Shown piece by piece: positions 1 to 14,005 of a DNA stretch of 16,278 nucleotides; positions within the stretch are counted from its first letter, which is position 1, and every line of letters begins with the position of its first letter. Location of the stretch: IMG/VR virus record IMGVR_UViG_2563366911_000006, one strand, 5' to 3'. The DNA is from a virus. Lineage: Duplodnaviria > Heunggongvirae > Uroviricota > Caudoviricetes. The notes beneath the pieces were generated by a model that saw nothing but the letters and a program-made list of their open reading frames with translations, did not search any database and had not been told where the DNA came from. The position numbers and the translations under genes were made by a program.

Positions 1-1254
1 ATGCCAAAACTCACAGATATGCAGATCCGCGCATGGATAAAAGCCGGAGAACATTTCGAAGGTCGTGCTGATGGTGGTGGGCTATATCTCCGGTATAGAG
101 AGGTGGATAGATCCCCTACCTGGCGGTTTCGATATAAACTAGCAGGAAAATCTCGTGCCATGCTTATTGGTTCATATTCTGAATTATCGTTATCAAAAGC
201 GAGGGAACGGGCAAAAGAACTTTCCGCACGAGTTGCTTTGGGATATGACGTAGCCGCAGAAAAACAGCAGCGTAAAGCCGAAGCACTGGCAAAAATAGAA
301 GCCGAAAAAAACGCGCTGCACGTTTCTGAACTTGCCGCCGAATACTTTGAACGGCAAATACTTCCCCGGTGGAAACACCCAGATATTCTCCGTAGGCGCA
401 TTGATAAAGACATAAATCCAGCCATAGGCCACATGAAGGTTGAAGATGTAAAACCACGCCATATTGATGCTATGCTTAAAAGTATTGTTGATAGAGGCGC
501 TCCAACAATTGCTACTGACGTTCTTCGCTGGACACGTCGCATATTTGACTACGGTATTAAACGCCTTGCTTTGGAAGTTAACCCCTGCTCAGCTTTCGAA
601 GTTTCAGATGCTGGTGGGAAAGAATTATCTCGTGATCGTTGGCTGAACCGGGACGAATTAATCCAATTTTTTCAGGCAATGCGTAAAGCCAAAGGATTCA
701 GCCGCCAGAACGAATTAACCTTTAAGTTGCTCCTGGCGTTGTGTGTCAGAAAAATGGAATTATGCGCCGCCAAGTGGGATGAATTCGACTTAGATGGCGC
801 GATTTGGCATCTACCAGAACAACGAACTAAAAATGGTGATGCTATCGACATACCATTGCCACCAGCGGCTATAGAATGGTTGCGAGAATTGCATACATTT
901 TCATGCAATAGCGCATGGGTATTACCTGCCAGAAAAATGCAGCACAGAATGATCCCTCACATCCAGGAAAGCACCCTTCCTGTTGCATTGGCAAAAGTCA
1001 GAGCAGAAATGCCGAACGTCCCCAACTTTACAATTCACGACTTCCGGCGAACAGCACGAACACATTTAGCAGCATTGGGAGTTGACCCGATCGTTGCTGA
1101 ACGATGCCTTAACCACCGCATAAAAGGCGTAGAGGGCATTTATAACCGCCATCAATATTTTGATGAGCGCAAAGCGGCACTAGCACAGTGGACTGATTTG
1201 CTGGTGAATTTAGAAAACATGATATGTTCTGACATCACGCAATCTAATAAATAA
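1..1254 (+). CDS. int: Tyrosine-type site-specific integrase, P4 family
   Basis: 417-aa ORF starting at base 1. N-terminal arm-binding-type region, then catalytic motifs: Arg in LCVRKMEL, HDFRRTARTH (H-x-x-R), and GIYNRHQY (His/Tyr nucleophile region). Recognised by family resemblance from memory, not by search. Confidence 0.93.
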   Translation: MPKLTDMQIRAWIKAGEHFEGRADGGGLYLRYREVDRSPTWRFRYKLAGKSRAMLIGSYSELSLSKARERAKELSARVALGYDVAAEKQQRKAEALAKIEAEKNALHVSELAAEYFERQILPRWKHPDILRRRIDKDINPAIGHMKVEDVKPRHIDAMLKSIVDRGAPTIATDVLRWTRRIFDYGIKRLALEVNPCSAFEVSDAGGKELSRDRWLNRDELIQFFQAMRKAKGFSRQNELTFKLLLALCVRKMELCAAKWDEFDLDGAIWHLPEQRTKNGDAIDIPLPPAAIEWLRELHTFSCNSAWVLPARKMQHRMIPHIQESTLPVALAKVRAEMPNVPNFTIHDFRRTARTHLAALGVDPIVAERCLNHRIKGVEGIYNRHQYFDERKAALAQWTDLLVNLENMICSDITQSNK

Positions 1255-1310
1255 TAGACATTAAGGCTAATTCATTAACGAATATATTTTTTCATAACGG
1301 TAGTGCAATC

Positions 1311-2093
1311 ATGACAAATATTAATGAAACAATATGGCAAAAAAAACAATTACCTCCATTAGAATTCTGCTCTTTAGATAGAGCAGCTCAAATTTTAGAA
1401 TGTGAAATAGATGATTTATGGCATTGGCAGGATATTAACAGAATTAATTTTGCCACAAAAATAAAAAATGCTTACTGTGAGGGGTATTTTGGTTATCGTG
1501 ATTTTACATGGCCAAAGGATGAAGACTATATTGATTTTATTTCTTTTCTCATCAAAAAAGAAATTTCCTCTCTTGGCATAATTATTCATGAATATAGTGA
1601 TGAAATAAAAGAAAATGGTGTTATTTTTGAGGCAAAGGTTTCTGGAGTTTTTGATATTCAAGAGACTATAGTAAGAAACAAAACTATCTCTATGAATACA
1701 TCCATACCGCTTTCACGTCGCACTGCGAATCCCACATTTATTTTTTCATGCCATGCAAAAACAAGCGGCAACATTAAGATTACACCTGATTCATTATTAA
1801 TAACCAGAGAGCACATTGACAACCTTTATAAATCAATAACAAATGGATTTCCAATTTACTCCATAAACAACACTATAAAAAAAGAAAATCACAAGTTACC
1901 AAGATTAACAATACATCAATTTAAAATGATATATGGATTATTAAGAATTGCCGGGTTAACAGACAATGAGATAATATCTTTGCCGCCTAACAAGTTAAAT
2001 AAAAAAATTGCACAAATAGGTGCTCAAAAAGGCATTGTAATCCCACAACCAGATAAGAACACTTGGAAAAGCTGGCGAGAGCGTTTTAGATAG
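1311..2093 (+). CDS. Hypothetical protein, strongly AT-rich orphan cargo gene
   Basis: 260-aa ORF, about 27% GC in its first 60 nt versus about 43% in the adjacent int. Asn/Ile/Lys-rich product with no motif I recognise. Weak Shine-Dalgarno. Lies in the int-alpA gap. Confidence 0.7.
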   Translation: MTNINETIWQKKQLPPLEFCSLDRAAQILECEIDDLWHWQDINRINFATKIKNAYCEGYFGYRDFTWPKDEDYIDFISFLIKKEISSLGIIIHEYSDEIKENGVIFEAKVSGVFDIQETIVRNKTISMNTSIPLSRRTANPTFIFSCHAKTSGNIKITPDSLLITREHIDNLYKSITNGFPIYSINNTIKKENHKLPRLTIHQFKMIYGLLRIAGLTDNEIISLPPNKLNKKIAQIGAQKGIVIPQPDKNTWKSWRERFR

Positions 2094-2205
2094 TGAAATA
2101 AGAAAAGTCACAGTGTTTTTTCTAAAACTCACACACACATCATTTCATTTGTTATTTAATGCCCCTATTACAAATCACAAACCAACAACAAAGGTAATGG
2201 GGCAT

Positions 2206-2424
2206 ATGAAAAACCAACCAATACTTCAAACCGCAATCCCTGCAACTGGCTATATCCGCCGCTATCGCCTGGCTGAATTGCTGGGTACCAGCTTATCAAC
2301 GCTCGATCGTTGGGTACGTAGCGGGAAGATGCCTAAGCCCATCAAACTGGGTGAGAAAAGCACTGCATTCGATGCGGTAGAGATTAATCGCTGGCTGGAA
2401 GAACGCCGAAACACATCAGCCTGA
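2206..2424 (+). CDS. alpA: AlpA-family (excisionase-like, MerR-type HTH) prophage regulatory protein
   Basis: 72-aa product with HTH core LAELLGTSLSTLDRWVRSGKMPKPIKLGEKSTAFDAVEINRWL, typical of AlpA/Xis-like proteins. Start is ambiguous (ATG 2197 or 2206; the ORF track starts at 2113 and is probably too long). Confidence 0.85.
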   Translation: MKNQPILQTAIPATGYIRRYRLAELLGTSLSTLDRWVRSGKMPKPIKLGEKSTAFDAVEINRWLEERRNTSA

Positions 2425-2503
2425 TAAAACAGCTACGGGATCAGGCGCCCCAGCTATCCACCAGCAAACAGCAATTAACCAGATTCGATAGCAGGAGTTT
2501 TTT

Positions 2504-3304
2504 ATGAAATTTCCAAAAACGCCCGTACAGGGGCAGGGCTTCGTTCGGCCTGAAAACCAGAATCTGCAAAATTTTGGTGAAATTATCCCGGTTATTTCCG
2601 GCGTTATTGGCGGGCGTGAAACCAATATTGTTAGTGCCAGAGCGTTGCATAAGGCGTTAGGTGTAGGGCGCGTTTTCCGTTCGTGGATCAAGGGGCGCAT
2701 TGAAGAATACGGCTTCACGGAAGGCGTGGATTATGAGGTTGTTGAATATTTGAGCCGACCCGATCCGGTGAGCGCAAAATCTCGCCAGCAAACAGCTCTT
2801 GAGTACATCATCACCGTGAACATGGCAAAAGAACTGGCGATGGTCGAACACACCGAACAGGGCCGTGCCGTTCGTCAGTACTTCATCAAATGCGAGGAGG
2901 AGCTACACAAGGTAGCGCCAGTGCGTTCCGCAGCGTTACGCCGGGAACTGAAAGCCCGTATCACCGTTGCCAGCTACTTTAAGCCGATGTGTGCCGCGCT
3001 GGAGGCGTACCGGGCTGAACTGGGTAAAAACACGTTCCAGCACCACTACACCACGGAAGCCAATATGCTGGCGCGTATCGTGCTGGGTGGCATGACTGCA
3101 AAACAGTGGGCACAGGCGAACGGCATTACAGGCGAACCACGCGACCACATGAGCACGTTGCAGCTTGAGCACCTTTCTTACCTTGAGCAGAGCAATATCA
3201 CGCTGATTGAGTTAGGCCTGGACTACCACCAGCGGAAAGCTGAATTAATTCGTCTTTCGCAGCGTTGGTTAGCCCGTCGCATGGAGGAAAACAGCCATGT
3301 GTAA
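2504..3304 (+). CDS. Phage antirepressor-like protein (AntA/Rha-type N-terminal domain)
   Basis: 266 aa, AGGAG Shine-Dalgarno 7 nt upstream. N-terminal segment ARALHKALGVGRVFRSWIKGRIEEYGFTEGVDYEV resembles the AntA/Rha antirepressor DNA-binding domain. C-terminal half not assigned. Confidence 0.75.
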   Translation: MKFPKTPVQGQGFVRPENQNLQNFGEIIPVISGVIGGRETNIVSARALHKALGVGRVFRSWIKGRIEEYGFTEGVDYEVVEYLSRPDPVSAKSRQQTALEYIITVNMAKELAMVEHTEQGRAVRQYFIKCEEELHKVAPVRSAALRRELKARITVASYFKPMCAALEAYRAELGKNTFQHHYTTEANMLARIVLGGMTAKQWAQANGITGEPRDHMSTLQLEHLSYLEQSNITLIELGLDYHQRKAELIRLSQRWLARRMEENSHV

Positions 3305-3976
3305 CGCTCTGACCGTTACAAAAAGAGAAAGCGCCCCGTTGCCGGAGCGCCTTTGTGAACGAATAGCCTACTGCGCCATATTGCTTACTGTCTACGAGGC
3401 AGATTATAGCGTTGTGGTCGCACAGAGTGAAGGCGCTGATCACCGTTACTACAGCACGCCAGAAATGCAGAATATTTTGCTGCAAAATGTCGTTGGTCAC
3501 GCTGTCCGGAAAGCAAAAAATTTTGCTGGTGGCGCGACTGATGCGATTTTGTCAGGTCGCAAGGTGATGATCAATCTGATGTCTAATTTCGTTCTGGATA
3601 AAACAAAGGCGACCGCAGAGGGCCACCAGTGGGAAAGCTACACACTTGAACACATCGCCAACAATGCCAGATTTGCGGCTGGTGGGCAATGTGATCAGTG
3701 TGCTGGCTTGCTGGTGGGCTATTCCTGCTCTTTAACATTGCCATGCCGCGATGTTTTCCAGGTATGCGACCCCATTTTTGTGCGCCTGTACTCTTTAAGG
3801 AATTTCTCAAGGATAAACGCACAGGGCGCGAATCTGTCTGACTCATATTCGTACGCTATCTTTCTGCGCTGTCTTTTCCGTGCCGGTGATGGTGTATTGG
3901 TCGATTCTTTGTTGGTCATTCTGTGTACCTGTAAAGCAATGCGCCGGAGTTCCTCACACCACGGCGATGATAGTTA

Positions 3977-4282
3977 TTATTCTGATTCTTTGGCCTTGCG
4001 GCGCTGGAGTTCTTCACGTGCGACGGTGACGAGCTGCCCGATCTCCTCGACAGCTTTGACTCCGATTTTTTCCACCTGCGCCAGTGCATTGAGCGAAGAA
4101 ACCAGGGGATTTTCTCCGCTTCCTTCTGCCTGGCGGCGGGCGATCTCACCACGCATGGCGGTTACTATGAATCCGGCGTTGCTTTCGCCGTCCAGTTTTA
4201 CGGATTCCATGCCTTCAAAAGCATCATGTGGGATACGAATTGAAATCTGTTTTGATTTGTCGTTGATAGTGTTTTTTGCCAT
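3977..4282 (-). CDS. Putative ribbon-helix-helix DNA-binding regulator
   Basis: 101 aa from ATG at 4282 (minus strand) with AGGAGA Shine-Dalgarno. N-terminus KQISIRIPHDAFEGMESVKL...FIVTAMRGEIARRQ fits a beta-strand/helix/helix RHH fold. Divergent from the rightward operon. The opposite-strand frame here reads as Ser/Arg-rich junk. Confidence 0.7.
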   Translation of the reverse strand: MAKNTINDKSKQISIRIPHDAFEGMESVKLDGESNAGFIVTAMRGEIARRQAEGSGENPLVSSLNALAQVEKIGVKAVEEIGQLVTVAREELQRRKAKESE

Positions 4283-4469
4283 GTGCATTCTCCTAAACAA
4301 AAGATGTGATTCAGTATACACAAAAAAGAATCACAAAAAATACTTGACCTGTGATTCAGTTAAATTTAATTTAAATCACACCTCAGTAAGAGGATATAAA
4401 CGACAACGCCCCGAACTGTTTGCGGCAGTAGCGGGGCGTCTAACCAAACCGTTAAATGAGGTAACGATT
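4283..4469. promoter_or_regulatory. Divergent control region with operator-like repeats and a leader hairpin
   Basis: Two 11-bp direct repeats TGTGATTCAGT (4305-4315, 4350-4360), each with an inverted partner GAATCACA/AATCACA (4328-4335, 4374-4380). Candidate rightward promoter TTGACC (4345-4350) with a TAATTT-type -10. Candidate leftward -10 TATACT (minus strand, 4313-4318). GC hairpin ACGCCCCG-N18-CGGGGCGT (4406-4439) in the operon leader. Confidence 0.5.
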
Positions 4470-4835
4470 ATGGCTGGGGCACAGCATACCCAAACTCACC
4501 CTAAATTTATATACACCTTCCTTGCGGTGCACCGTGATTGCATGGCTGACGGTAAAAACACTGTTCATGTAGCCGCCGATACGCTGGTTGATGCCTGCGA
4601 GATGCTCAATGACATGGGCTATATCTCGGCAACATGGAAAGGGCGCGAAGAAAACACGTTGTTTATTCAGAAATGCGAAAACAATTTTATCTGGCGTTTT
4701 ATCGCCCTGAGTACGGCACAACCGCGCGTGATTCACATCGAGGCCACCAGCGAACAGGAAGCACGCCAGCAATCTCCTGATGGCTGCGTGATGGTATTCG
4801 CTGCCCGTATTCGCCAGGAGGTGGAGCATGTGTAA
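4470..4835 (+). CDS. Hypothetical satellite-operon protein (possibly Icd-like)
   Basis: 121 aa, GAGGT Shine-Dalgarno 8 nt upstream of ATG 4470. It is the only protein-like part of the 512-aa ORF-track frame. Family assignment is from memory and uncertain. Confidence 0.65.
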   Translation: MAGAQHTQTHPKFIYTFLAVHRDCMADGKNTVHVAADTLVDACEMLNDMGYISATWKGREENTLFIQKCENNFIWRFIALSTAQPRVIHIEATSEQEARQQSPDGCVMVFAARIRQEVEHV

Positions 4836-5052
4836 TGCAACATGGCCTGATGCAGCGGTAGACGCTATCAAAACGCTGATGGATTCACTTATTGAGATTT
4901 CTGCTATCGCTGGTGTGGCGCATAAACACGCAGCCAGAGAATCAGAATGCATCTCCCATTATTTAGCATTTGTGCAGCTGAAAGCCGATCAGGCACTGGA
5001 TAAGGCCGGAAAAATTATCATGGCTGATGTACAGGAGGTGCACCATGCATAA
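4828..5052 (+). CDS. Hypothetical small protein
   Basis: 74 aa. Start overlaps upstream stop (ATGTGTAA), consistent with translational coupling. Confidence 0.5.
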   Translation: MCNATWPDAAVDAIKTLMDSLIEISAIAGVAHKHAARESECISHYLAFVQLKADQALDKAGKIIMADVQEVHHA

Positions 5053-5410
5053 CCTGTCAATTTCTGACCTTAACAGCATTCAGTTTGACGAGATATTTTC
5101 CGGGCAGCTACTGGTTAACGTGGAGAATGGACGCGTGGTAAGTAATTATCACCTGCCGGATGGTGCAATTGCCGGAAGCGTTGAAGCATTGCTGGAACTG
5201 GCGGAACGTGCGCGACTGATTAAGCCGTCAACGTGCCATCACGATGATGATCTGCATTTTACCGGGTGTATGGTGAGTCACTACGAAAACGGCGTTGAAG
5301 TATCCTGCGAACGTCTGCGTGATGATTGCTGTTTCGGCACACTGCCGGAATTTATCGAATTGCTGACCAGTTGCGGTTATCAGGTCATTCAGGGGGGTAA
5401 ACATGCGTGA
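5045..5410 (+). CDS. Hypothetical protein
   Basis: 121 aa from ATG 5045 with GGAGG Shine-Dalgarno (5033-5037). Overlaps upstream stop (ATGCATAA). Confidence 0.6.
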   Translation: MHNLSISDLNSIQFDEIFSGQLLVNVENGRVVSNYHLPDGAIAGSVEALLELAERARLIKPSTCHHDDDLHFTGCMVSHYENGVEVSCERLRDDCCFGTLPEFIELLTSCGYQVIQGGKHA

Positions 5411-5636
5411 TGATCGTTTTAATTCCCTGAAACAGGAGTTTGATGGCGCACCGGAAGATACATCGGGCGCATTGTTGAGCATTGCTGACATGATGAAAGC
5501 TGCATATTTTCTTATCAATACCAGGGGCTACAAGTCAGAGGGTGAAATGATTCTTAGTATTGCGTCGGACTATGCTGAATATGTGGCAGAGACGCGTTAC
5601 AGAAGAAAATCTCTGGAGGATGTAAGCCATGCATAA
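5403..5636 (+). CDS. Hypothetical small protein
   Basis: 77 aa. ATGCGTGA start/stop overlap with upstream gene. Confidence 0.55.
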   Translation: MRDDRFNSLKQEFDGAPEDTSGALLSIADMMKAAYFLINTRGYKSEGEMILSIASDYAEYVAETRYRRKSLEDVSHA

Positions 5637-5829
5637 TCATGAAGCGCATGTACCCGTAGTGCTTAATGTGCCAGATGATTTCACCGGACGCGTGCTGGTT
5701 TACCTTGATAAAGAAAAAGTGAAATCACAATGCCGACTGAAAAGTAATGAGATTGTGGGTTCTCCTGAATTTTTTTCTGAACTCTGTATTCGTGCAGAAA
5801 TAAAACCGGAACTGCTGACAGGAAAATAA
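5629..5829 (+). CDS. Hypothetical small protein
   Basis: 66 aa. ATGCATAA start/stop overlap with upstream gene. Confidence 0.5.
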   Translation: MHNHEAHVPVVLNVPDDFTGRVLVYLDKEKVKSQCRLKSNEIVGSPEFFSELCIRAEIKPELLTGK

Positions 5830-5833
5830 AACC

Positions 5834-6124
5834 ATGAAAAGGAAAAATTCTGGCTTTACTGCCAGCGGTCTCTCTCGGCCTGAAATCAGACACGGAGATA
5901 TTTACCGCGACACCAGACGTGGGGGACGAGTGGTTATTCGTCACGTTACGCCAGGCAATATCACCTACCGCCGTGAGGCTTACGAATATGACTGCGTAAT
6001 GCCGCGCCGTCAGTTTGAGCGTGATTTTATTCTGGTGGAAAACAAACAACAGGCAGTGGCGAGACGTGCAGCCACGAATATTAAAAAAATCCGGGCAATG
6101 TTGGTTGCGGGAGGTAAGAAGTGA
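5834..6124 (+). CDS. Hypothetical small basic protein
   Basis: 96 aa, starts 4 nt after the previous stop. Its stop overlaps the GTG start of the primase (GTGA). Confidence 0.6.
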   Translation: MKRKNSGFTASGLSRPEIRHGDIYRDTRRGGRVVIRHVTPGNITYRREAYEYDCVMPRRQFERDFILVENKQQAVARRAATNIKKIRAMLVAGGKK

Positions 6125-7926
6125 AAAACGCACCGAATTTAAAATATCAGCCGAAGGATAAATTCACCGAGGTAATCATTTTTGCCGGGACGGATGCTTA
6201 CGCCCATGCTCAACACTGGATTGAAAGCGAAGGACGAAAACACGGCGATAACGTGCCTCCTGTTTACCTGGGGCCAAAGCAACTGGCAGACCTGGCGAAT
6301 ATCCGCATTGTCGACGATGAACGCCGCTTTGCGCGTGTCTATCTCGCGGGGGAGATAGAGCCAATCCAGATCAATGCTATTGCTGAAAAGCTGGCGCTGG
6401 CTGGTGTACAGGACGCGAAATTATACAAAGGTATCACCGACCGGGAGCCGGAAAACTGGCGCGACTACCTGCAACGGATCCGCGAACAGGCAGAGAGTGG
6501 GGAAGTTTCAGCGATGAAATTAGCCACAAAAAATATTGACCTATCTAGGCCAGCACTAAATCAGATGGGAGCCAGCCAGAGAGGGGAAGTGTTACTTGAA
6601 TATTATGGAAGAGCACTGGCTATAAATGATGATTCTGATGTAGTTCACCATTACAACGGAATTGTCTGGGTGCCTGTATCTGATAAGGAACTCCAGCGGT
6701 CTATGGCGAAGATTTTTATTGATGCTGGAATCAGTTATTCGCAAAACGCCATTAAATTTGCCGTAGACACAATGAAATTGAGCCTGCCTGTTATGGGCGG
6801 GGCAGACAGGAATCTTATTGGATTCAGTAACGGGGTATTTGATACCCGGACGGGAAATTTTCGGGAGCATAACAAAAATGACTGGTTGTTAAATGCCAGT
6901 GAATTACCGTTCAGCCCACCAGCAGAGGGGGAAACGCTGGCAACACATGCGCCGAATTTCTGGAAGTGGCTGCGTCGTTCGGTGGCAGATAATGATCGTA
7001 AAGCTGATCGCGTACTGGCGGCATTATTCATGGTGCTGGCGAACCGGTACGACTGGCAGTTATTCCTTGAGGTAACAGGCCCAGGCGGAAGCGGTAAAAG
7101 TGTGATGGCTGAGATTTGTACCATGCTGGCGGGTAAGGCAAACACAGTATCGGCAAGCATGAAGGCTCTGGAAGACGCAAGGGAACGCGCGTTAGTAGTT
7201 GGCTTTTCGCTGATTATCATGCCGGATATGACTCGCTACGCTGGCGATGGTGCAGGAATTAAGGCAATTACTGGCGGCGACAAGGTGGCAATTGATCCGA
7301 AACATAAAGCCCCCTACTCCACACGTATTCCGGCAGTAGTGCTTGCGGTAAACAATAACGCCATGTCATTCAGTGACCGAAGCGGGGGGATCTCGCGTCG
7401 TAGGGTGATATTTAATTTCTCTGAGGTCGTACCGGAGAACGAACGCGATCCCATGCTGGCGGAAAAGATAGAAGGCGAACTGGCGGTAGTGATTCGCCAT
7501 TTGCTAACACGATTTACCGACCAGGACGAAGCTAAAAGACTACTTTATGAGCAGCAAAAATCAGAAGAAGCGCTGTTGATAAAGCGCGAAGGTGATTCAC
7601 TGGTGGACTTTTGCGGCTATCTGATGTCGTTGGTTAAATGTGAAGGAATGATGGTGGGCAATGCGGAAATAGTGCCATTTAGCCCGAGGCGATACCTGTA
7701 TCATGCTTATTTAGCCTATATGTCAGCGCATGGCCTGGGAAAACCAGTATCACTGACACGCTTTGGTACTGATATGCCAGGAGCTATGGCGGAATACGGA
7801 AAGGAGTATAAGCGGGCTAAATGCACTAAAGGCCCGGATAAAGGGCGAGTGATAACAAATGTTCTGTTAGATGATGATGCTGATGGCTGGTTGCCAGCAG
7901 CTACAGGGATTAACGACAGAACATAA
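6121..7926 (+). CDS. Replication primase/helicase, P4 alpha-type C-terminal family (P-loop NTPase)
   Basis: 601 aa, GTG start with GGAGG Shine-Dalgarno. Walker A motif TGPGGSGKS near aa 316 (about nt 7066-7092). Overall resemblance to the P4-family primase C-terminal/helicase region. Followed directly by iterons. Confidence 0.88.
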   Translation: MKNAPNLKYQPKDKFTEVIIFAGTDAYAHAQHWIESEGRKHGDNVPPVYLGPKQLADLANIRIVDDERRFARVYLAGEIEPIQINAIAEKLALAGVQDAKLYKGITDREPENWRDYLQRIREQAESGEVSAMKLATKNIDLSRPALNQMGASQRGEVLLEYYGRALAINDDSDVVHHYNGIVWVPVSDKELQRSMAKIFIDAGISYSQNAIKFAVDTMKLSLPVMGGADRNLIGFSNGVFDTRTGNFREHNKNDWLLNASELPFSPPAEGETLATHAPNFWKWLRRSVADNDRKADRVLAALFMVLANRYDWQLFLEVTGPGGSGKSVMAEICTMLAGKANTVSASMKALEDARERALVVGFSLIIMPDMTRYAGDGAGIKAITGGDKVAIDPKHKAPYSTRIPAVVLAVNNNAMSFSDRSGGISRRRVIFNFSEVVPENERDPMLAEKIEGELAVVIRHLLTRFTDQDEAKRLLYEQQKSEEALLIKREGDSLVDFCGYLMSLVKCEGMMVGNAEIVPFSPRRYLYHAYLAYMSAHGLGKPVSLTRFGTDMPGAMAEYGKEYKRAKCTKGPDKGRVITNVLLDDDADGWLPAATGINDRT

Positions 7927-7953
7927 TACGAAATTTATAAGCTGAAACGTAAA

Positions 7954-8289
7954 GGTAGACGGTTGGTAGACAGATTCACTTAACCCTCTACCAACCATCT
8001 ACCAATTAATATTTTGAATTATAAAGATATTTTCAATGTAGTAGAGAGGTAGACAGTTATTTCTATATTCCTAAACCACGGGGGGTATATAAAAAACAGA
8101 TAGTTAAGGGGGCATTTTTTAAATTTCTCTTTTAACTGTCTACACTGTCTACCATTTAGTAAAAATCATTAATTATCAATGTATTAATGCGGTAGACCGT
8201 TGGTAGACAGTTTGCAGATTGTTTTTTTGTTATGTGTTAATAACATTAAATAAATCAATCAATTATATCGGTAGACAGTTGGTAGACAG
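7954..8289. repeat. Iteron array, putative satellite replication origin
   Basis: Repeated GGTAGAC(N)GTTGGTAGACAG units in both orientations (7954-7973, inverted 7987-8002, 8041-8056, inverted 8136-8153, 8191-8210, 8270-8289) separated by AT-rich DNA. No ORF of 60 aa or more. Immediately 3' of the primase/helicase gene. Confidence 0.7.
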
Positions 8290-8301
8290 TTGTAACGATG
8301 G

Positions 8302-8310
8302 GGCAAAGCA
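8302..8310. repeat. IS10 target-site duplication, left copy (GGCAAAGCA)
   Basis: 9-bp sequence identical to 9640-9648, directly flanking the IS10 ends. Confidence 0.9.
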
Positions 8311-8356
8311 CTGATGAATCCCCTAATGATTTTGGTAAAAATCATTAAGTTAAGGT

Positions 8357-8425
8357 GGATACACATCTTGTCATATGATCAAATGGTTTCGCGAAAAATC
8401 AATAATCAGACAACAAGATGTGCGA
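8357..8425 (-). ncRNA. IS10 RNA-OUT antisense RNA (position inferred)
   Basis: Placed by offset from the IS10 outside end using textbook IS10 organisation. Imperfect inverted repeat CATCTTGTC (8364-8372) / GACAACAAGATG (8409-8420) fits the RNA-OUT stem overlapping the transposase start. Confidence 0.45.
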
Positions 8426-9626
8426 ACTCGATATTTTACACGACTCTCTTTACCAATTCTGCCCCGAATTACACTTAAAACGACTCAACAGCTTAACGTT
8501 GGCTTGCCACGCATTACTTGACTGTAAAACTCTCACTCTTACCGAACTTGGCCGTAACCTGCCAACCAAAGCGAGAACAAAACATAACATCAAACGAATC
8601 GACCGATTGTTAGGTAATCGTCACCTCCACAAAGAGCGACTCGCTGTATACCGTTGGCATGCTAGCTTTATCTGTTCGGGCAATACGATGCCCATTGTAC
8701 TTGTTGACTGGTCTGATATTCGTGAGCAAAAACGACTTATGGTATTGCGAGCTTCAGTCGCACTACACGGTCGTTCTGTTACTCTTTATGAGAAAGCGTT
8801 CCCGCTTTCAGAGCAATGTTCAAAGAAAGCTCATGACCAATTTCTAGCCGACCTTGCGAGCATTCTACCGAGTAACACCACACCGCTCATTGTCAGTGAT
8901 GCTGGCTTTAAAGTGCCATGGTATAAATCCGTTGAGAAGCTGGGTTGGTACTGGTTAAGTCGAGTAAGAGGAAAAGTACAATATGCAGACCTAGGAGCGG
9001 AAAACTGGAAACCTATCAGCAACTTACATGATATGTCATCTAGTCACTCAAAGACTTTAGGCTATAAGAGGCTGACTAAAAGCAATCCAATCTCATGCCA
9101 AATTCTATTGTATAAATCTCGCTCTAAAGGCCGAAAAAATCAGCGCTCGACACGGACTCATTGTCACCACCCGTCACCTAAAATCTACTCAGCGTCGGCA
9201 AAGGAGCCATGGATTCTAGCAACTAACTTACCTGTTGAAATTCGAACACCCAAACAACTTGTTAATATCTATTCGAAGCGAATGCAGATTGAAGAAACCT
9301 TCCGAGACTTGAAAAGTCCTGCCTACGGACTAGGCCTACGCCATAGCCGAACGAGCAGCTCAGAGCGTTTTGATATCATGCTGCTAATCGCCCTGATGCT
9401 TCAACTAACATGTTGGCTTGCGGGCGTTCATGCTCAGAAACAAGGTTGGGACAAGCACTTCCAGGCTAACACAGTCAGAAATCGAAACGTACTCTCAACA
9501 GTTCGCTTAGGCATGGAAGTTTTGCGGCATTCTGGCTACACAATAACAAGGGAAGACTCACTCGTGGCTGCAACCCTGCTTACTCAAAATCTATTCACAC
9601 ATGGTTACGTTTTGGGGAAATTATGA
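8418..9626 (+). CDS. IS10 transposase
   Basis: 402-aa ORF MCELDILHDSLYQFCPELHLKRLNSLTLACHALLDCKTLTLTELGRNLPTKARTKHNIKRIDRLLGN... recognised as the IS10/Tn10 transposase. Full length, intact frame. Confidence 0.95.
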   Translation: MCELDILHDSLYQFCPELHLKRLNSLTLACHALLDCKTLTLTELGRNLPTKARTKHNIKRIDRLLGNRHLHKERLAVYRWHASFICSGNTMPIVLVDWSDIREQKRLMVLRASVALHGRSVTLYEKAFPLSEQCSKKAHDQFLADLASILPSNTTPLIVSDAGFKVPWYKSVEKLGWYWLSRVRGKVQYADLGAENWKPISNLHDMSSSHSKTLGYKRLTKSNPISCQILLYKSRSKGRKNQRSTRTHCHHPSPKIYSASAKEPWILATNLPVEIRTPKQLVNIYSKRMQIEETFRDLKSPAYGLGLRHSRTSSSERFDIMLLIALMLQLTCWLAGVHAQKQGWDKHFQANTVRNRNVLSTVRLGMEVLRHSGYTITREDSLVAATLLTQNLFTHGYVLGKL

Positions 9627-9639
9627 GGGGATCTCTCAG

Positions 9640-9648
9640 GGCAAAGCA
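9640..9648. repeat. IS10 target-site duplication, right copy (GGCAAAGCA)
   Basis: Identical to 8302-8310. Its last base is the A of the ATG of the next gene. Confidence 0.9.
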
Positions 9649-10178
9649 TGACTAAGCTGACCATTAACAGAAAACCAAAAGGTATTTACGGCACGCCGCA
9701 GAAAACGACGCAGGCGGCACAGGAGCAGGATAAAACCACATCGGCGCATAAAGTGATGCCCGGTAACCAGAAAGCGCAGCAGAAGCCTACAGGGGCGACA
9801 CCGTGGCGGCATATGACCAAACGCCAGCGCAAAAACCGCAGGCGCGTTAACCGCCTCACTGAGTTGTGGCCTGACTTATTCAGCCGGGAAGCACTGAAGC
9901 CGCTTAAGGTGGGGATATTCGACGACCTGATGCAGGATCTCGCCGCCAGGGGGCTGGCATTCGGGCCAGGGGCATTGCGTGCGACGCTGGCATCTTATGC
10001 GCAGTGTCCGCGCTATTACCGCGCCTTAATGGCTGGTGGGGTACGCTACGACCTGAAAGGCCAGCCGTGCGGCGAGGTGACACCACAGGAACAACAGGAC
10101 GCAGAAACGCGGCTGGTGGCGCTGAATGAGAAGCGCAAACGCCAGTGCCGGGCAGCAAAGGAGACAATAGGCGCATGA
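9648..10178 (+). CDS. ProQ/FinO-domain protein (RNA chaperone-like)
   Basis: 176 aa, GC-rich. Segment PLKVGIFDDLMQDL...LRATLASYAQCPRYYRALMAGGVRYDLKGQPCGEVTPQEQ closely parallels the conserved ProQ/FinO core (PLKIGIF..DL...R.DL.G.PCGE). IS10 lies immediately upstream. Confidence 0.72.
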   Translation: MTKLTINRKPKGIYGTPQKTTQAAQEQDKTTSAHKVMPGNQKAQQKPTGATPWRHMTKRQRKNRRRVNRLTELWPDLFSREALKPLKVGIFDDLMQDLAARGLAFGPGALRATLASYAQCPRYYRALMAGGVRYDLKGQPCGEVTPQEQQDAETRLVALNEKRKRQCRAAKETIGA

Positions 10179-10462
10179 TTCACGACAGCAAAGCGGAAGC
10201 ACTGGAAGCGCGTGGTCTGTACCGGAGAGCGGCGGCGCGGTGGGCTGAGGTCATCATGCTGGCGAATGATGACAAGGCACGGGAACAGGCGGCAAAACGT
10301 CGCGCGGAATGTATCCACAAGGCAGCACGCCCACCAGCAAGGCAGGATAATTTCGGGGAGATGCGCGAAACCATCAGCCGGGCACATGCCGGGATGGGAT
10401 TACATCAGCCCAATGGTGAGGCATTCAGGAAATACCAAAAAAAGAACAATTGTAGTCAGTAA
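10175..10462 (+). CDS. PerC-family-like small transcriptional regulator
   Basis: 95 aa from ATG 10175, overlapping the upstream stop (ATGA). N-terminal AEALEARGLYRRAAARWAEV recalls the PerC family. Assignment from memory, moderate certainty. Confidence 0.6.
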   Translation: MIHDSKAEALEARGLYRRAAARWAEVIMLANDDKAREQAAKRRAECIHKAARPPARQDNFGEMRETISRAHAGMGLHQPNGEAFRKYQKKNNCSQ

Positions 10463-10596
10463 CAGAGGATGGGATTCTCTTGGTTTTTTGTTGATGCTTT
10501 CTGAGGAAATCTACTACGTTGCTGAGCAGATGAATATTCAATTGCATCTGGGTTCCTGATAAGATTAATCTGAATATTTTCATTTGGAATAGGGAT

Positions 10597-11739
10597 ATGA
10601 ATAAAACTTTAATTGCAACATTAGTCGGTATAGTAATGTTAACCGGATGTGGGCCAGAAGAGTTAACTCCAGAACAGAAACAGGAAGTAGCTGCTCTTAA
10701 AGCTGAACTGTCGCAAACGGAAGGTGAAATATCAGCAGCTAAGGAAGTTGACCAGCAGTTTTCTGGTGGGTTGATAAAAAATCTGACAACAGCAAGACTG
10801 GAAATATTAGGAACTAATAAAGCGCTTTTGGAACAGCGTATTAATGCTATTGAATCAGGTGCCAAAATTGATGTTGTTGTATCTGGAGTAAAACCTGATC
10901 CTGAGCTTGCGGCTTCAATTAAAACTGAAATTGACAGCTTAGATGCAAAAATCAACGAAGCCAAAGCTGATGCTCGTCAGTATAGTGGTGGTCTGATAAA
11001 GGTACTAAAATTATCTACTGTTGCCACTGAAGAGCAGACCATGGCAATGTTGCAGCAAAAGTACCTCACAGCCAAGTATGGCCTCGCTGAAGTTAAGCTG
11101 GCATCAGTACAAGCTAATGACGCAAAAAACAGTACTGAAACGGAAGTAACAGCCAAAAATTCCCAAGAGCAACTTCCTTTACTCCCGCCAGCGGATGGTC
11201 CGTTTGGCTTAGAAGCCGGTCTTACACAGAAAAACATCGAAGATATGATCGGTGCTAAGCTCAAGCCACTACCAGACAGTGTGAATCTGTATACTTCTGA
11301 TAAATTACCGAAGCAAAACGCAGATTTTGAAATGTATGGTTTGCTGATCTCCCCGAAAGCTGGTTTATGTCAAATACGGGCTTTAGGAAAAAATATTGAT
11401 ACTGATAGCTATGGATTGGCTCTTAAATCCAAGTTTGAAGAATTGAGTAATTCTTTAAGTTCTCTGTATGGAAAGGCTGATACTACAGACTTTTTGCTGG
11501 CTGGTTCAATTTGGAAAGATCCTCAGGACTGGATGAGGGGGCTAAACAAAAAAGAACGCTTCTTATCTGCCACATGGAAGGGAACAAAAGAAATACCATT
11601 AAAAAACAATATTGATACTATATCTATTGAGGCCAGAGCGAACAATTCCACTCAGGGATATGTCTATCTGCAGTACTCATTTACAAATGACGAAATTTGT
11701 CAGGCAGAAATTGAAGGGGCGAAAAAAAGTTCCCTTTAA
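10597..11739 (+). CDS. Lipoprotein with internal repeats, function unknown
   Basis: 380 aa. Signal peptide with lipobox LTGC (Cys18). Two copies of a Q(F/Y)SGGLIK motif about 70 aa apart in a coiled-coil-like N-terminal half. AT-rich. Followed by a strong terminator. Confidence 0.85.
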   Translation: MNKTLIATLVGIVMLTGCGPEELTPEQKQEVAALKAELSQTEGEISAAKEVDQQFSGGLIKNLTTARLEILGTNKALLEQRINAIESGAKIDVVVSGVKPDPELAASIKTEIDSLDAKINEAKADARQYSGGLIKVLKLSTVATEEQTMAMLQQKYLTAKYGLAEVKLASVQANDAKNSTETEVTAKNSQEQLPLLPPADGPFGLEAGLTQKNIEDMIGAKLKPLPDSVNLYTSDKLPKQNADFEMYGLLISPKAGLCQIRALGKNIDTDSYGLALKSKFEELSNSLSSLYGKADTTDFLLAGSIWKDPQDWMRGLNKKERFLSATWKGTKEIPLKNNIDTISIEARANNSTQGYVYLQYSFTNDEICQAEIEGAKKSSL

Positions 11740-11751
11740 ACAATCCGTGCA

Positions 11752-11778
11752 AAGCCCCTTAGTAAGGGGCTTTTATAT
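11752..11778 (+). terminator. Rho-independent terminator
   Basis: Perfect 9-bp stem AAGCCCCTT / AAGGGGCTT with 3-nt loop, followed by TTATATATT. Confidence 0.7.
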
Positions 11779-11803
11779 ATTAATGTTCAACGTGGGGGAT
11801 TAG

Positions 11804-12127
11804 ATGAAAGATAATCTAGCAAAACTAATTGAAAATACTTTAAAAGATATTCTATTAGCTAATGCTGCTCTAACATTCATTTTTGCAATACCAATGGCTA
11901 TTATCAGTAGGCATGGGATGGGCATCACAATCTGGTTTATAACTGTGCTCATTGCACCTGCTCTGTGTGCAGTAGGTGCATGGCTTGTATCTCGAACATC
12001 CGGCCATGCTGAGGAGTTCTTTCATCGTCGGTGGGCTAAGCGAATTTATGTTTTTTATACTCTTGCGGCTGCCGAGTTTTTGCTTGTGTACTCAATCGCG
12101 CAAATAATGAAAAATCTGATGAAATAA
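11804..12127 (+). CDS. Small integral membrane protein (about 3 TM helices)
   Basis: 107 aa, GGGGGA Shine-Dalgarno. Three hydrophobic stretches of about 20 aa (LANAALTFIFAIPMAIIS, ITIWFITVLIAPALCAVGAWLV, IYVFYTLAAAEFLLVYSIAQIM). AT-rich. Confidence 0.7.
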   Translation: MKDNLAKLIENTLKDILLANAALTFIFAIPMAIISRHGMGITIWFITVLIAPALCAVGAWLVSRTSGHAEEFFHRRWAKRIYVFYTLAAAEFLLVYSIAQIMKNLMK

Positions 12128-12395
12128 TTAACAAGTTATTATCATGGAGCTTGTGGCTGTTAACCTGCAGTGAGGCGACAATCGTGTATTTATAAAAACT
12201 TCCCCTTTTCACTCCCCGCTGCTTCTTCTGCTATTGCCTTTATGTTTGCATCTGCCATACCTTTGCAGAAAAATCAGAGCATTCAGTGCCGAAGGTTGGT
12301 TTATTGATGCTTTTCGTTTCATTTATTGCAATTGTCTCTGGTATCATTTCAATTTGTGCAATAATTGCAATTATTGTCATTCAGAAGGGATCATC

Positions 12396-12563
12396 ATGAA
12401 AAATCACGGAGTAAAGCCAGTTTTACTTTCCCGGAGGCAGATCGAAGCCCTGCAACGCATCCAGGACGAAGAGCGTCAGAAATCTGTGCTTGGTGTGGCA
12501 CCGTCGATTCATGTTATCGCTCGGCAACTGATGGATAAGGCACTTAAAGAGGTGAGACTGTGA
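12396..12563 (+). CDS. Small hypothetical protein (possible DNA-binding regulator or antitoxin-like)
   Basis: 55 aa from ATG 12396 with AAGGGA Shine-Dalgarno 5 nt upstream. Upstream region carries ATTGCAAT-type palindromic repeats. The ORF-track start (12234) is probably too far upstream. Confidence 0.55.
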   Translation: MKNHGVKPVLLSRRQIEALQRIQDEERQKSVLGVAPSIHVIARQLMDKALKEVRL

Positions 12564-12832
12564 AATTAAATATCAGAGTGGATAAACGCCAGCTATGGCA
12601 GAAAAAAGAGAACAGCGAGGCATTCAGGGCGTTGCTGGTGGAAAATCTTCAGCATCGGTTCAGTGGAGAGTTGCCTGATGCTCTAGGGAAGAAACTGGAA
12701 TCCCTGACGGTGGAAATTGGCGATTATGGCTTTGTTGATGTTGAAAGCACGACTGCCAACACAGAAATCGTAAAACAGGTCGTCAATGATGTAATGAAAA
12801 CCACGCTTAGCCAGCCATCCTGGCGCAACTGA
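12560..12832 (+). CDS. Small acidic hypothetical protein
   Basis: 90 aa. GTG start overlapping the upstream stop (GTGA), suggesting a coupled two-gene unit. Followed by a hairpin terminator. Confidence 0.55.
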   Translation: MKLNIRVDKRQLWQKKENSEAFRALLVENLQHRFSGELPDALGKKLESLTVEIGDYGFVDVESTTANTEIVKQVVNDVMKTTLSQPSWRN

Positions 12833-12838
12833 ATCAGT

Positions 12839-12862
12839 AAGGGGCGGTTATTGCCCCTTTCC
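12839..12862 (+). terminator. Putative rho-independent terminator
   Basis: Stem AAGGGGC / GCCCCTT with 7-nt loop followed by TTCCTCC. U-tract is weak. Confidence 0.5.
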
Positions 12863-12931
12863 TCCATACCCACAACGCATTCCCTTTCCGCATGAAATTA
12901 TTTTTTATCGTATATGCATGAGGTGAGCTAC

Positions 12932-13459
12932 ATGTTGATGAGTAAAGCCGAATACGCCAAATACAAAGGCGTAAGCCGCCAGACAGTTTACGACTGGCTC
13001 GAGAAAGGCGAAGTGGTCATGTCCGGTAAAAAAATTGATGTGGAGGCGACAGAGCAGCGGAACAGCCCACCGGCACAAGGGAAAGACACCGTTTCTGAAA
13101 TGTGGCCAGAAAGAACGCTGGAAATGACGTGGGGCGAGTTCTGGAAAGCAGTTAAGGCCAGAGACGGTAAAATTCCTTCGCCAGTAACGGACGATGACAT
13201 ACAGCAGCGTGTGCTGTATGCAGCCGGGGAATTAGGCTGGGAAGTGCACTTTCTTGATGATGGTGCTATCTGCCTTGAGGATGATGAAGGGCAGCATTAC
13301 TTTGAAAAATACAATTTGCGAGGTAATGCCAGGCTGGCAATTCGTATGCTGCGTTGCGAACTCTGCTATGTTGCAGGTGATTATCCCGATGAACTGGAAT
13401 CATGGAGTGAAGCCGGGCTAAACGCCCTGGCTGAATGGGAAAAATCAGACCATCAATGA
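12932..13459 (+). CDS. N-terminal HTH protein (possible small-terminase-like or packaging-redirection-like DNA-binding protein)
   Basis: 175 aa from ATG 12932 with GAGGTGA Shine-Dalgarno. N-terminus MSKAEYAKYKGVSRQTVYDWLEKGEV is an HTH of the type found at the N-terminus of small terminase / Nu1-like proteins. Acidic C-terminal domain. A repeat array lies immediately downstream. Confidence 0.65.
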   Translation: MLMSKAEYAKYKGVSRQTVYDWLEKGEVVMSGKKIDVEATEQRNSPPAQGKDTVSEMWPERTLEMTWGEFWKAVKARDGKIPSPVTDDDIQQRVLYAAGELGWEVHFLDDGAICLEDDEGQHYFEKYNLRGNARLAIRMLRCELCYVAGDYPDELESWSEAGLNALAEWEKSDHQ

Positions 13460-13464
13460 CATCA

Positions 13465-13733
13465 AAAAGTGTCAAGTTAAGCAGCTTGCCAGGTTGACAC
13501 TTTACACTCTGAACGCGAAAAAGTGTCAACCTCGCTAGAAGCCGCGCCATTACTGGCCTTGTACCATATTCACCACGTCAAAAAACCGAAAAAATCGCGA
13601 AAAGTGTCAAGTTGCCATGCTTAGAAATGCCAGGGGTGGTTAAGTTTTGTTAAGGTTTTTCGCGAAAAAGTGTCAAGTGTGTCAACCTGCGATGTTAAGG
13701 TTTGTTAAGGTCTTAAGCTGGAAAGTGTCAACC
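13465..13733. repeat. Array of AAAGTGTCAA-type repeats, putative protein-binding site cluster
   Basis: Seven copies of (CGCG)AAAAGTGTCAA(G/C): direct at 13465-13476, 13515-13532, 13597-13611, 13661-13677, 13676-13688 (variant), 13720-13733, and inverted at 13492-13503. Interleaved GTTAAGG(T) repeats (about 13640-13660, 13693-13712, 13741-13756). No ORF of 60 aa or more on the plus strand. Confidence 0.75.
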
Positions 13734-13763
13734 AGCCACCTAAGATTTCCTAAGGTGTAAATC

Positions 13764-13937
13764 ATGACCATCACCGAAGCCGATTTGCTGGAGATGATCC
13801 GCAGCATTGCCGGAATCAAACAACCTGCAAGAAAAATTAACAGGTGTTCAGCGCCTGTTTCCGTTGTGCTGCAACAGGAACGCCACCAGCAGGATGATGT
13901 GAGGCCGTATCAGTGGAAGAAACCGGACAGGCCGCGA
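13764..13937 (+). CDS. Small ORF (57 aa), possibly a gene remnant
   Basis: ATG 13764 with AAGGTG Shine-Dalgarno 7 nt upstream. First about 20 aa are protein-like (MTITEADLLEMIRSIAGIKQ), the remainder low-complexity. Below the ORF-track size cutoff. Confidence 0.3.
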
Positions 13938-13982
13938 CGGTGAGCGAGGCGTTACAGTAAGCCGATATTCAAGCCAAACATT

Positions 13983-14005
13983 AAGCCTACGGGCAAGGCT
14001 TTTTT
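13983..14005 (+). terminator. Putative rho-independent terminator
   Basis: Stem AAGCCT / AGGCTT with 7-nt loop followed by TTTTG. Confidence 0.5.

Follow-up and report, generated by a model that had tools for sequence, protein, structure and literature searches.

A P4-alpha-family helicase-initiator gene and its adjoining iteron array as the probable replication module of an EcCI-type phage-inducible island

The region at 6121-8310 of the window (the whole stretch of 16,278 nucleotides that was analysed) is most probably the replication module of a Gram-negative PICI of the EcCI type, consisting of a P4-alpha-family SF3 helicase-initiator and an adjoining iteron origin, and we put the probability of this reading at about 85%. 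It is supported by a repeat cluster that greatly exceeds chance and is restricted to 7953-8290, by Rep domains that match an SF3 core and the P4 alpha origin-binding domain, by the DUF4222-rep-gap order shared with EcCICFT073, whose rep-ori fragment replicates, and by a repeat class that tracks a segment of the binding domain in 104 loci. The original prediction of a helicase-type initiator, of an iteron origin directly 3' of the initiator gene and of a satellite context was upheld on all three points by the domain matches, the homology to the solved P4 alpha origin-binding domain, the EcCICFT073 synteny and the repeat/binding-domain co-variation. The arrangement of rep followed by an iteron origin is an ordinary one that has already been described.

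The genes and the parts of Rep are as follows.
5834-6124, plus strand: DUF4222 gene, directly upstream of rep (Pfam PF13973, E 1.4e-19)
6121-7926, plus strand: rep, encoding an initiator-helicase (601 aa) from the P4 alpha family (Pfam domains; identity to P4 alpha and EcCICFT073 Rep)
6121-6504, plus strand: Rep N-terminal domain, residues 1 to about 128, small alpha/beta, weakly Toprim-like
7078-7101, plus strand: Walker A/P-loop GPGGSGKS, residues 320-327, SF3 ATPase core (translation; alignment to 7ola)
7591-7896, plus strand: C-terminal origin-binding domain, residues 491-592 (phmmer against PDB: 1ka8, the P4 alpha origin-binding domain, E 6.4e-19)
7810-7854, plus strand: variable segment of the binding domain, residues 564-578, KRAKCTKGPDKGRVI (alignment, identity split)

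The P-loop protein noticed earlier is encoded by an intact open frame of 601 codons with a GTG start codon; an identical protein is annotated in other E. coli in RefSeq as 'DNA primase family protein', and many database copies are 97-99% identical. The stop of the DUF4222 gene and the start of rep share 4 bases, and DUF4222 homologues lie directly 5' of rep in L003, L004, L007 and EcCICFT073 (L028); the pairing of DUF4222 with a following rep is conserved among relatives that have the window-type N-terminal domain. Pfam matched D5_N (residues 156-285), DUF5906 (319-427) and Pox_D5 (490-567), together with a weak match to PPV_E1_C. The SF3 core aligned to the SF3 helicase of SaPI5 PriRep5 (7ola, E 8.8e-10), with GPGGSGKS, LIIMPD, VLAVNNN and SRRRV opposite the equivalent motifs, so that Rep carries the Walker A, Walker B, motif C (Asn), Arg finger and D5/E1-like ATPase core of an SF3 helicase. 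Across residues 141-592 it is 49% identical to P4 alpha. Its score against TIGR01613 ('phage/plasmid primase, P4 family, C-terminal domain') was 95.8 bits (E 2.1e-27), below the curated cut-off of 108.7 bits; judged by sequence, Rep is a clear homologue of this family despite the sub-threshold score.

The N-terminal part of Rep does not bear out the word 'primase' in the heading of the original prediction, which had itself correctly pointed out that a long N-terminal primase/zinc-ribbon region was missing. Nothing in Rep corresponds to residues 1 to about 320 of P4 alpha, and a domain of about 125 aa with an alpha/beta fold stands in place of the zinc-ribbon and Toprim primase. This domain lacks two canonical Toprim features, the Glu that ends strand 1 and the DxD that ends strand 3, and the zinc ribbon CxxC...CxxC and the EGYATA motif are absent from Rep. 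The proposed domain search recognised no Toprim or primase motif: residues 1-160 gave no Pfam or NCBIfam match, and hhalign of the N-terminal domain against the P4 Toprim returned a probability of 0.1, which is no match. Among relatives, the helicase/binding core was found with any of three interchangeable N-terminal modules, and just one of these can be recognised as a primase. Because the zinc-ribbon/Toprim region is absent and the replacement domain lacks the catalytic acidic residues, the primers most likely come from the host primase. Host priming is also a simpler inference than helper priming, since plain DH5alpha supports replication of the homologous rep-ori of EcCICFT073 (PMC6092414); priming that depends on a helper is pure conjecture.

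Directly 3' of rep lies a 384-bp gap (7927-8310), the putative origin, with a GC content of 32% compared with 49% for the rep gene and 45% for the window, and with no ORF of at least 50 aa on either strand. Its elements are listed below; no strand is given for spacers.
7953-7974, plus strand: iteron pair 1, direct, 11-bp phase, AGGTAGACGGT and TGGTAGACAGA
7983-8004, minus strand: iteron pair 2, inverted relative to pair 1, 11-bp phase, TGGTAGAGGGT and TGGTAGATGGT
8005-8046: AT-rich spacer, about 22% GC, candidate melting region
8047-8057, plus strand: single iteron AGGTAGACAGT
8058-8134: central spacer of 77 bp, separating the left iteron set from the right, candidate melting region
8135-8154, minus strand: iteron pair 3, 9-bp phase, GTGTAGACAGT and TGGTAGACAGT
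8190-8211, plus strand: iteron pair 4, direct, 11-bp phase, CGGTAGACCGT and TGGTAGACAGT
8269-8290, plus strand: iteron pair 5, direct, 11-bp phase, CGGTAGACAGT and TGGTAGACAGT

GGTAGACMG has seven exact copies in the 16.3-kb window, every one of them within 7965-8289; the chance expectation is 0.08, and none of 200 shuffles reached seven. When the 11-mer TGGTAGACAGT was searched with up to 2 mismatches, 11 copies were found within 7953-8290 and 3 across the other ~15.9 kb, so that the claim of at least six iterons in both orientations within AT-rich, ORF-free DNA proved correct and conservative. Seven copies are on the plus strand (starts at 7953, 7964, 8047, 8190, 8201, 8269 and 8280) and four on the minus strand (7983, 7994, 8135 and 8144), forming four tandem pairs spaced at 11 bp and one at 9 bp, with most copies thereby paired at a distance of one helical turn; a degenerate 12th iteron is present at about 8039-8049. 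The central spacer, with five iterons to its left and six to its right, is about 37% GC and has two G-runs flanking A/T tracts.

Other origin elements were also sought. No DnaA box was found in the putative origin, with window-wide counts at chance level, and an Rfam scan detected no RNA family within it. Two IHF consensus sites (8174-8186 and 8253-8265) each lie 16 bp ahead of a direct repeat pair; as an origin element they are unproven, being unconserved in relatives and not significant in their window-wide count. Integrase arm-type sites were rejected as an identity for the repeats, which are far from the island ends and track Rep rather than Int.

A cluster in this position could instead be a cis-acting enhancer of the crr type, with Rep looping to a separate origin elsewhere, as in P4, where crr is the cluster immediately following alpha and a distance of about 4.5 kb separates it from the origin; the P4-like relative L025 similarly has two distal GGTGAACA clusters and none adjoining the gene. 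We consider this improbable, as the 16.3-kb window holds no second cluster, only the 3 scattered sites (up to 2 mismatches) outside 7953-8290, and the cluster 3' of rep is the sole one in the complete 22.5-kb locus L001, an uninterrupted island. A second, P4-like distal origin was ruled out on these grounds. In the syntenic EcCICFT073, moreover, rep and the adjacent gap sufficed for replication (PMC6092414).

The surroundings of the putative replication module are those of an EcCI-type PICI, with a left-end integrase, one transcription direction, an AlpA-type regulator, and rep followed by a repeat-set origin. A tyrosine recombinase (Arm-DNA-bind_3, Phage_int_M, Phage_integrase) occupies 1-1254 at the left end, an AlpA-type regulator (2113-2424; Phage_AlpA PF05930, E 1.8e-08) is located upstream of the replication genes, and all long ORFs across 1-16278 are on the plus strand (rightward), giving the gene order int-alpA-...-DUF4222-rep-ori. 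Relatives of the island are integrated at tRNA-Thr beside proA; a tRNA scan of the window found none. Sid, delta, psu and epsilon were not recognised by Pfam or PHROG among the window ORFs, several of which are matchless, in a window that ends inside the island. For possible induction and packaging by a helper phage the support is indirect: related stretches numbered 507 on IMG/VR viral contigs, and the genome of one relative, vB_KppS-Ant, came from induced particles. The best coverage of the island among complete E. coli genomes was 67%; it is mosaic and nowhere represented whole there.

The position 8310, at which the original prediction ended the region, is the left junction of an insertion element that it had not mentioned.
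8311-9639, plus strand: IS10 insertion abutting the putative origin, outside the replicon (sequence reading, DDE transposase, RNA-OUT)

The element has the duplicated 9-bp target GGCAAAGCA on either side (8302-8310 and 9640-9648), contains RNA-OUT (8356-8425, minus strand, 98.8 bits in the Rfam scan) and is missing from the 99.9% identical island L001. It separates the putative origin from the ProQ/FinO gene (start 9648) and leaves the repeats intact. The outward promoter of IS10, pOUT, is expected to fire towards the origin, and the insertion, 20 bp away, might disturb origin function. The module could be a decaying remnant whose features are real while the replicon is silent here, for example through IS10 or point changes, a reading in keeping with the IS10 abutting the repeat array, with a frameshifted rep pseudogene in E. 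coli K56-43-un and with an IS3-family element that splits the equivalent origin in other strains. We regard it as very unlikely: the rep frame is intact, at 601 aa and 97-99% identity to many database copies, all 11 repeats are present and match those of uninterrupted relatives, and IS10 lies outside the array.

The relationship between Rep and its repeats was examined in 23 related genome loci and, for co-variation, in 104 related loci with repeats. In 21 of the 23, 4-11 repeat copies lay within 450 bp 3' of rep, with few elsewhere, the exceptions being L013 and L025; in all 104 loci with repeats, the cluster was directly 3' of rep. Across the 104, the variable segment predicted the repeat class without exception, with the pairings KGR/GGTAGA, K-x-G-[ILM]-R/GGTGAA, KG[NH]/GGTGGA and RGR/GGCGGA, and the repeat class went with this part of the binding domain and did not follow the helicase core. 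In Rep the segment has K-G-R at residues 574-576. Near-isogenic pairs separate the segment from the remainder of Rep. Between L024 and L020/L021, whose repeats differ, identity was 99% in the core, 90-92% in the binding domain outside the segment and 48% in the segment; the core and segment values were 98% and about 50% for L016 against L015/L017, and 98% and 44% for L007 against L006. Since the region coding for the binding domain physically adjoins the repeats, the co-variation could stem partly from recombinational co-transfer rather than selection for recognition. The origins of relatives include GGTGAACA and GGTGGAGA types.

In many iteron plasmids, initiator-bound iterons serve as autoregulatory operators. 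That the present repeats are mainly operators for transcription from rep into ProQ/FinO-PerC, bound by Rep or another regulator with replication secondary or absent, would fit this general background and the failure to find a terminator-like site 3' of rep, past which transcription probably reads through the repeat region, but is the least probable alternative, given that the promoter/terminator scan of 7700-8500 was at chance level (3 promoter-like matches against 2.9 expected), that the repeats vary together with a helicase's origin-binding domain, and that the rep-repeat unit stays constant while the downstream genes vary (SSB/PerC in EcCICFT073, capsid in vB_KppS-Ant, ProQ/PerC here).

With the region read as a PICI replication module, the C-terminal origin-binding domain of Rep would recognise the 11-bp repeats TGGTAGACAGT. 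The origin-binding domain of P4 alpha is described as a winged helix, and from the fold topology the variable segment 564-578 probably corresponds to the wing; an AlphaFold prediction of the whole protein, based on a shallow alignment of sequences at 77-99% identity, had a pLDDT of 41, at which the segment could not be placed on the fold. Upon induction and excision of the island, Rep bound to the repeat pairs may assemble into one or more hexamers, which would open an AT-rich spacer and thread onto single strands, acting as a self-loading SF3 helicase-initiator, and the circle would then be copied by the host replisome. Binding, melting, helicase loading, the initiation site and the primer source are all inferred. 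Published PICI origins have two repeat sets around one AT-rich region; because there are four AT-rich spacers here, the central one only moderately AT-rich, there are several candidate melting sites.

We also offer, tentatively and at clearly less than even odds, a joint reading that combines a recognition code with a primase-less lineage. A motif of 3-5 residues in the presumed wing (KGR, K-x-G-[ILM]-R, KG[NH] or RGR) would set the two central bases read in GGTnnA, and satellites would re-assort segment and origin, yielding mutually incompatible replicons. The N-terminal domain would be a dead Toprim relic, now serving as an adaptor that recruits the host primase/replisome; if so, the P4 alpha replication system, otherwise independent of the host, would have in this lineage a branch that lacks a primase.

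For annotation, these results suggest the label satellite origin for 7927-8310 and, for rep, initiator-helicase instead of 'DNA primase'. The region adds little biology beyond what is published, as a 2018 study had already described and tested the order of rep and then iteron origin in Gram-negative PICIs, and the repeat core is shared with a related island. The exception-free pairing of segment and repeat class, with its near-isogenic natural swaps, may serve work on satellite replication or orthogonal replicons, for which the three interchangeable N-terminal modules on a shared core are possibly useful as well.

The closest known system is the pri-rep/ori module of EcCICFT073, a Gram-negative PICI (Fillol-Salom et al. 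2018, ISME J; PMC6092414), where a rep-ori fragment supported plasmid maintenance and rep and ori mutants did not. Both islands have int, an alpA-type regulator, small ORFs, DUF4222, rep, an ORF-free gap and a PerC-containing downstream block; the Reps are three-part proteins with an equivalent N-terminal domain type and 44% identity over their full length, and the repeat core GGTAGA[CT]AG, which in EcCICFT073 appears as GGTAGACAG/GGTAGATAG repeats, occurs in both orientations directly 3' of rep. EcCICFT073 differs in its integration at ycfD-phoQ rather than tRNA-Thr/proA, as in relatives of the present island, in an origin of about 230 bp compared with about 340 bp and more tandem 11-bp pairs here, and in a downstream SSB in place of ProQ/FinO; the IS10 beside the origin is a feature of the present copy.

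P4 shares the homologous helicase and C-terminal origin-binding domain and a repeat cluster directly 3' of the gene, where crr contains the octamer bound by alpha, GGTGAACA (annotation: 'ori type 1 repeat'), which differs at two positions from the window repeat core GGTAGACA. In contrast to Rep, P4 alpha begins with about 320 aa of zinc ribbon and Toprim primase with the EGYATA motif, and P4 needs two clusters several kb apart (ori and crr) where one is found here; crr, in the position equivalent to the present cluster, is not the start of synthesis. The Reps of SaPIs are SF3 self-loading helicases whose C-terminal winged helix binds iterons directly downstream of rep (PMC9371898), and in SaPIs, too, the short repeats just 3' of rep occur in both orientations and surround AT-rich DNA. 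Sequence similarity to SaPI Rep is distant and limited to the ATPase core, the SaPI repeats are 5-6 bp compared with about 11 bp here, and SaPIs encode a separate or fused primase, while no catalytic one is recognisable here. Iteron plasmids (pSC101, R6K, RK2 and F-type Rep) also place initiator-site repeats beside AT-rich DNA near the initiator gene; unlike the present origin, which has no DnaA box, they depend on small winged-helix Reps that recruit host DnaA, DnaB and DnaC, whereas here the initiator itself would be the helicase.

The rep gene was open over 601 codons (6121-7926, +), from a GTG start that overlaps the stop of the DUF4222 gene upstream, and was followed by a repeat-containing gap. 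The 384 bases of 7927-8310 contained no ORF of at least 50 aa on either strand, and their GC content was 32%, compared with 49% in rep. GGTAGACMG occurred seven times in the window, every time within 7965-8289, where 0.08 occurrences were expected by chance and 0 of 200 dinucleotide-preserving shuffles gave seven. When up to two mismatches were allowed, eleven copies of the 11-mer TGGTAGACAGT were found within 7953-8290, with three isolated sites in the other 15.9 kb. The original prediction of at least six iterons in both orientations within AT-rich, ORF-free DNA was therefore correct, and understated the array, which was arranged as follows:

7953, 7964, 8047, 8190, 8201, 8269 and 8280, plus strand: iteron copies
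7983, 7994, 8135 and 8144, minus strand: iteron copies
8005-8046, 8155-8189 and 8212-8268: AT-rich spacers (22-23% GC)
8058-8134: central spacer of 77 bp (37% GC)

Four tandem pairs were spaced at 11 bp, one helical turn, and one at 9 bp. The origin contained no DnaA box, and promoter signals around it did not exceed chance. No terminator was found 3' of rep, so transcription probably crosses the origin. The IHF consensus WATCAANNNNTTR matched at 8174-8186 and 8253-8265, each 16 bp before a direct iteron pair; these were two of just three matches in the whole window, and they were not conserved in the relatives' origins.

The Rep protein carried three Pfam domains:

Residues 156-285: D5_N
Residues 319-427: DUF5906, the SF3 P-loop core (P-loop GPGGSGKS, residues 320-327)
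Residues 490-567: Pox_D5

Among solved structures, residues 491-592 matched the origin-binding domain of P4 alpha (1ka8, E 6.4e-19) and residues 232-434 matched the SF3 helicase of SaPI5 PriRep5 (7ola, E 8.8e-10). Identity to P4 alpha was 49% across residues 141-592, and the score against the P4-family primase C-terminal domain (TIGR01613) was 95.8 bits, under the cut-off of 108.7. The label "DNA primase family protein" in databases thus traces to the helicase part, and not to a primase domain. Near-identical proteins numbered in the thousands (4326 hits, E 1e-10 or better). In the uninterrupted island of E. coli K56-43-un (L001, 10322-12128), an otherwise 99.9% identical rep was annotated as a frameshifted pseudogene; some copies of this replicon are thus in decay.

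The predicted placement of the repeats just 3' of the initiator gene recurred among 23 genome loci encoding Rep relatives (one 50% identical, the others 63-99%). A low-GC stretch with 4-11 repeat copies (up to one mismatch) lay just 3' of the rep stop in 21 of them, with few or no copies elsewhere in the ~9-kb locus. One locus, L013, had just a few copies. Another, L025 of Erwinia rhapontici, encodes a P4-type long primase N-terminus and had no iterons adjacent to the gene; two distal GGTGAACA clusters (1187-1272 and 7643-7738) lay at distances of ~1.9 kb (upstream) and ~2.1 kb (downstream), a layout resembling ori and crr of P4. The relatives' repeats varied on one theme (GGTAGACAG, GGTAGACAC, GGTAGATAG, GGTGAACAC, GGTGGAGAG, GGTGGACAG and GGCGGACAG), of which GGTGAACAC is the type I repeat of P4 itself. 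When the origins were aligned, the repeats stayed in register, with all copies altered in concert.

In the alignment of C-terminal domains, repeat class tracked a short variable segment with conserved flanks on either side, window residues 564-578 (7810-7854), which we infer from the winged-helix topology to be the wing. L024 and L020/L021 shared 99% identity in the helicase core and 90-92% in the binding domain outside the segment, but only 48% in the segment, and had GGTGGAGA and GGTGAACA repeats, respectively. For L016 vs L015/L017, the values were 98%, 94-96% and ~50% (GGTGGACAGT vs GGCGGACAGT), and for L007 vs L006, 98%, 74% and 44% (GGTAGA class vs GGTGAA class). These naturally occurring, near-isogenic pairs isolate the effect of the segment. 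Although its N-terminus is a P4-type primase, L011 shares its binding domain (97-100%) and repeats with L007. With 80 viral-contig loci added, the set grew to 105 loci, of which 104 had repeats; segment variants numbered 32. Across the window and loci L003-L108, the following partition, of short motifs in the segment against repeat classes, held without exception in the 104 loci with repeats, which are phylogenetically related:

Segment KGR: repeat GGTAGA
Segment K-x-G-[ILM]-R: repeat GGTGAA
Segment KG[NH]: repeat GGTGGA
Segment RGR: repeat GGCGGA

Linkage contributes to this pattern, the coding sequence of the segment lying no more than ~120 bp from the repeats.

The N-terminus of P4 alpha (~320 aa) has a CPVCGG...CNQC zinc ribbon and a Toprim primase with EGYATA and DRD motifs. 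None of these was found in Rep, a domain search of Rep recognised no Toprim/primase motif, and a profile comparison of its N-terminal module with the P4 Toprim was negative, bearing out the original prediction that a primase region is missing. Residues 1 to ~128 instead form a distinct conserved module, which matched a PHROG of unknown function and nothing in Pfam or NCBIfam. Its AlphaFold model (35 homologues, pLDDT 81) was a four-stranded beta-alpha repeat fold with no significant Foldseek match. Toprim enzymes have Glu at the end of strand 1 and DxD at that of strand 3, where the family instead has near-invariant Ala22 and Ala76-Gly77-x; this leaves catalytic priming, implied by the earlier label "primase", unsupported. 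In other enterobacterial proteins the module (~125 aa, window 6121-6504) was fused to AAA_25 (PF13481) helicase-like or DUF927-type domains (proteins with the module or its fusions: P0005, P0016, P0035, P0020 and P0026); the domain is a mobile module. Among the relatives, the P4-alpha-like helicase/binding core was joined to three different N-termini:

P4-type primase: L011, L025 and P4
Window type: the window, L003-L010, vB_KppS-Ant and, by BLAST comparison, EcCICFT073
Third type: L012-L024

The other genes of the window, all on the plus strand, were as follows, with rep, the repeat gap and an IS10 between DUF4222 and ProQ/FinO:

1-1254, +: integrase
2113-2424, +: AlpA-type regulator
2504-3304, +: AntA
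Between AntA and DUF4222, +: small ORFs
5834-6124, +: DUF4222
9648-10178, +: ProQ/FinO
10145-10462, +: PerC
After PerC, +: unknown genes
14290-16278, +: Schlafen/AlbA_2 protein, running off the window end

In E. coli relatives the island adjoins tRNA-Thr, downstream of proA. A 512-aa ORF (3297-4835, +) matched Icd-like/"transcriptional repressor" PHROGs in its last ~50 residues, with no match in Pfam or PHROGs for the first ~460. This long form was absent from islands L001 and L026, which had a short Icd-like gene and an opposite-strand YlcI/YnfO gene. The Schlafen protein (at least 662 aa, AlbA_2 and HATPase_c_4 domains) occupies the variable end of the island and looks like defence-type cargo; related islands had GapS1, or a methyltransferase/DUF262/HEPN set, in its place.

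The insertion at the origin consisted of the following:

8302-8310 and 9640-9648: 9-bp target duplication (GGCAAAGCA)
8311-9639: complete IS10, outside end at 8311 (CTGATGAATCCCC...), inside end at 9639
8356-8425, minus strand: RNA-OUT (98.8 bits)
8418-9626: DDE transposase

IS10 starts 20 bp past the last iteron, leaving the array uninterrupted, and on its other side directly abuts the ProQ/FinO start codon (9648). From pOUT, the outward promoter of IS10, transcription would be expected to run leftward into the origin. The corresponding stretch of E. coli K56-43-un was 99.9% identical without IS10, and the gap there led directly to the ProQ/FinO gene. An IS3-family element lay within the same origin in seven or more other complete E. 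coli genomes (hits H17-H23; L026 from 11383). Its position, equivalent to window 8181/8182, is between the inverted iteron pair and the first direct pair on the right; the right-hand iteron pairs and the ProQ/PerC genes were missing there. Together, these insertions suggest that the AT-rich origin is a recurrent insertion sequence target.

The predicted satellite replicon layout agreed with the organisation of Gram-negative phage-inducible chromosomal islands (PICIs), namely int, unidirectional transcription, pri-rep and an origin immediately 3' (PMC6092414). The prototype EcCICFT073 (NC_004431, 1377749-1389210) shares the DUF4222-rep-gap-...-PerC order; the two Rep proteins show 44% identity from end to end, N-terminal domain included, and the EcCICFT073 gap contains GGTAGACAG/GGTAGATAG repeats in both orientations. 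At the restrictive temperature, the EcCICFT073 rep-ori fragment is reported to maintain a temperature-sensitive plasmid, which rep or ori mutants fail to do (PMC6092414). The best-supported mechanism, resting on this experiment and on P4 alpha and SaPI precedents, is that the C-terminal domain of Rep would bind the iteron pairs, Rep would oligomerise either side of an AT-rich spacer and melt it, and would then self-load as an SF3 hexameric helicase, with DNA synthesis by the host replisome. Primers would most simply come from the host primase, since EcCICFT073 rep-ori replicates in DH5alpha. The position of the repeats directly 3' of rep is also that of crr in P4, but P4 has two clusters, ori and crr, whereas the island has a single one, making it unlikely that the repeats serve as crr only. 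This layout, how it functions in a homologous island, and the repeat core itself have all been published before; only the pairing of segment with repeat class and the modularity of the N-termini are mildly new.
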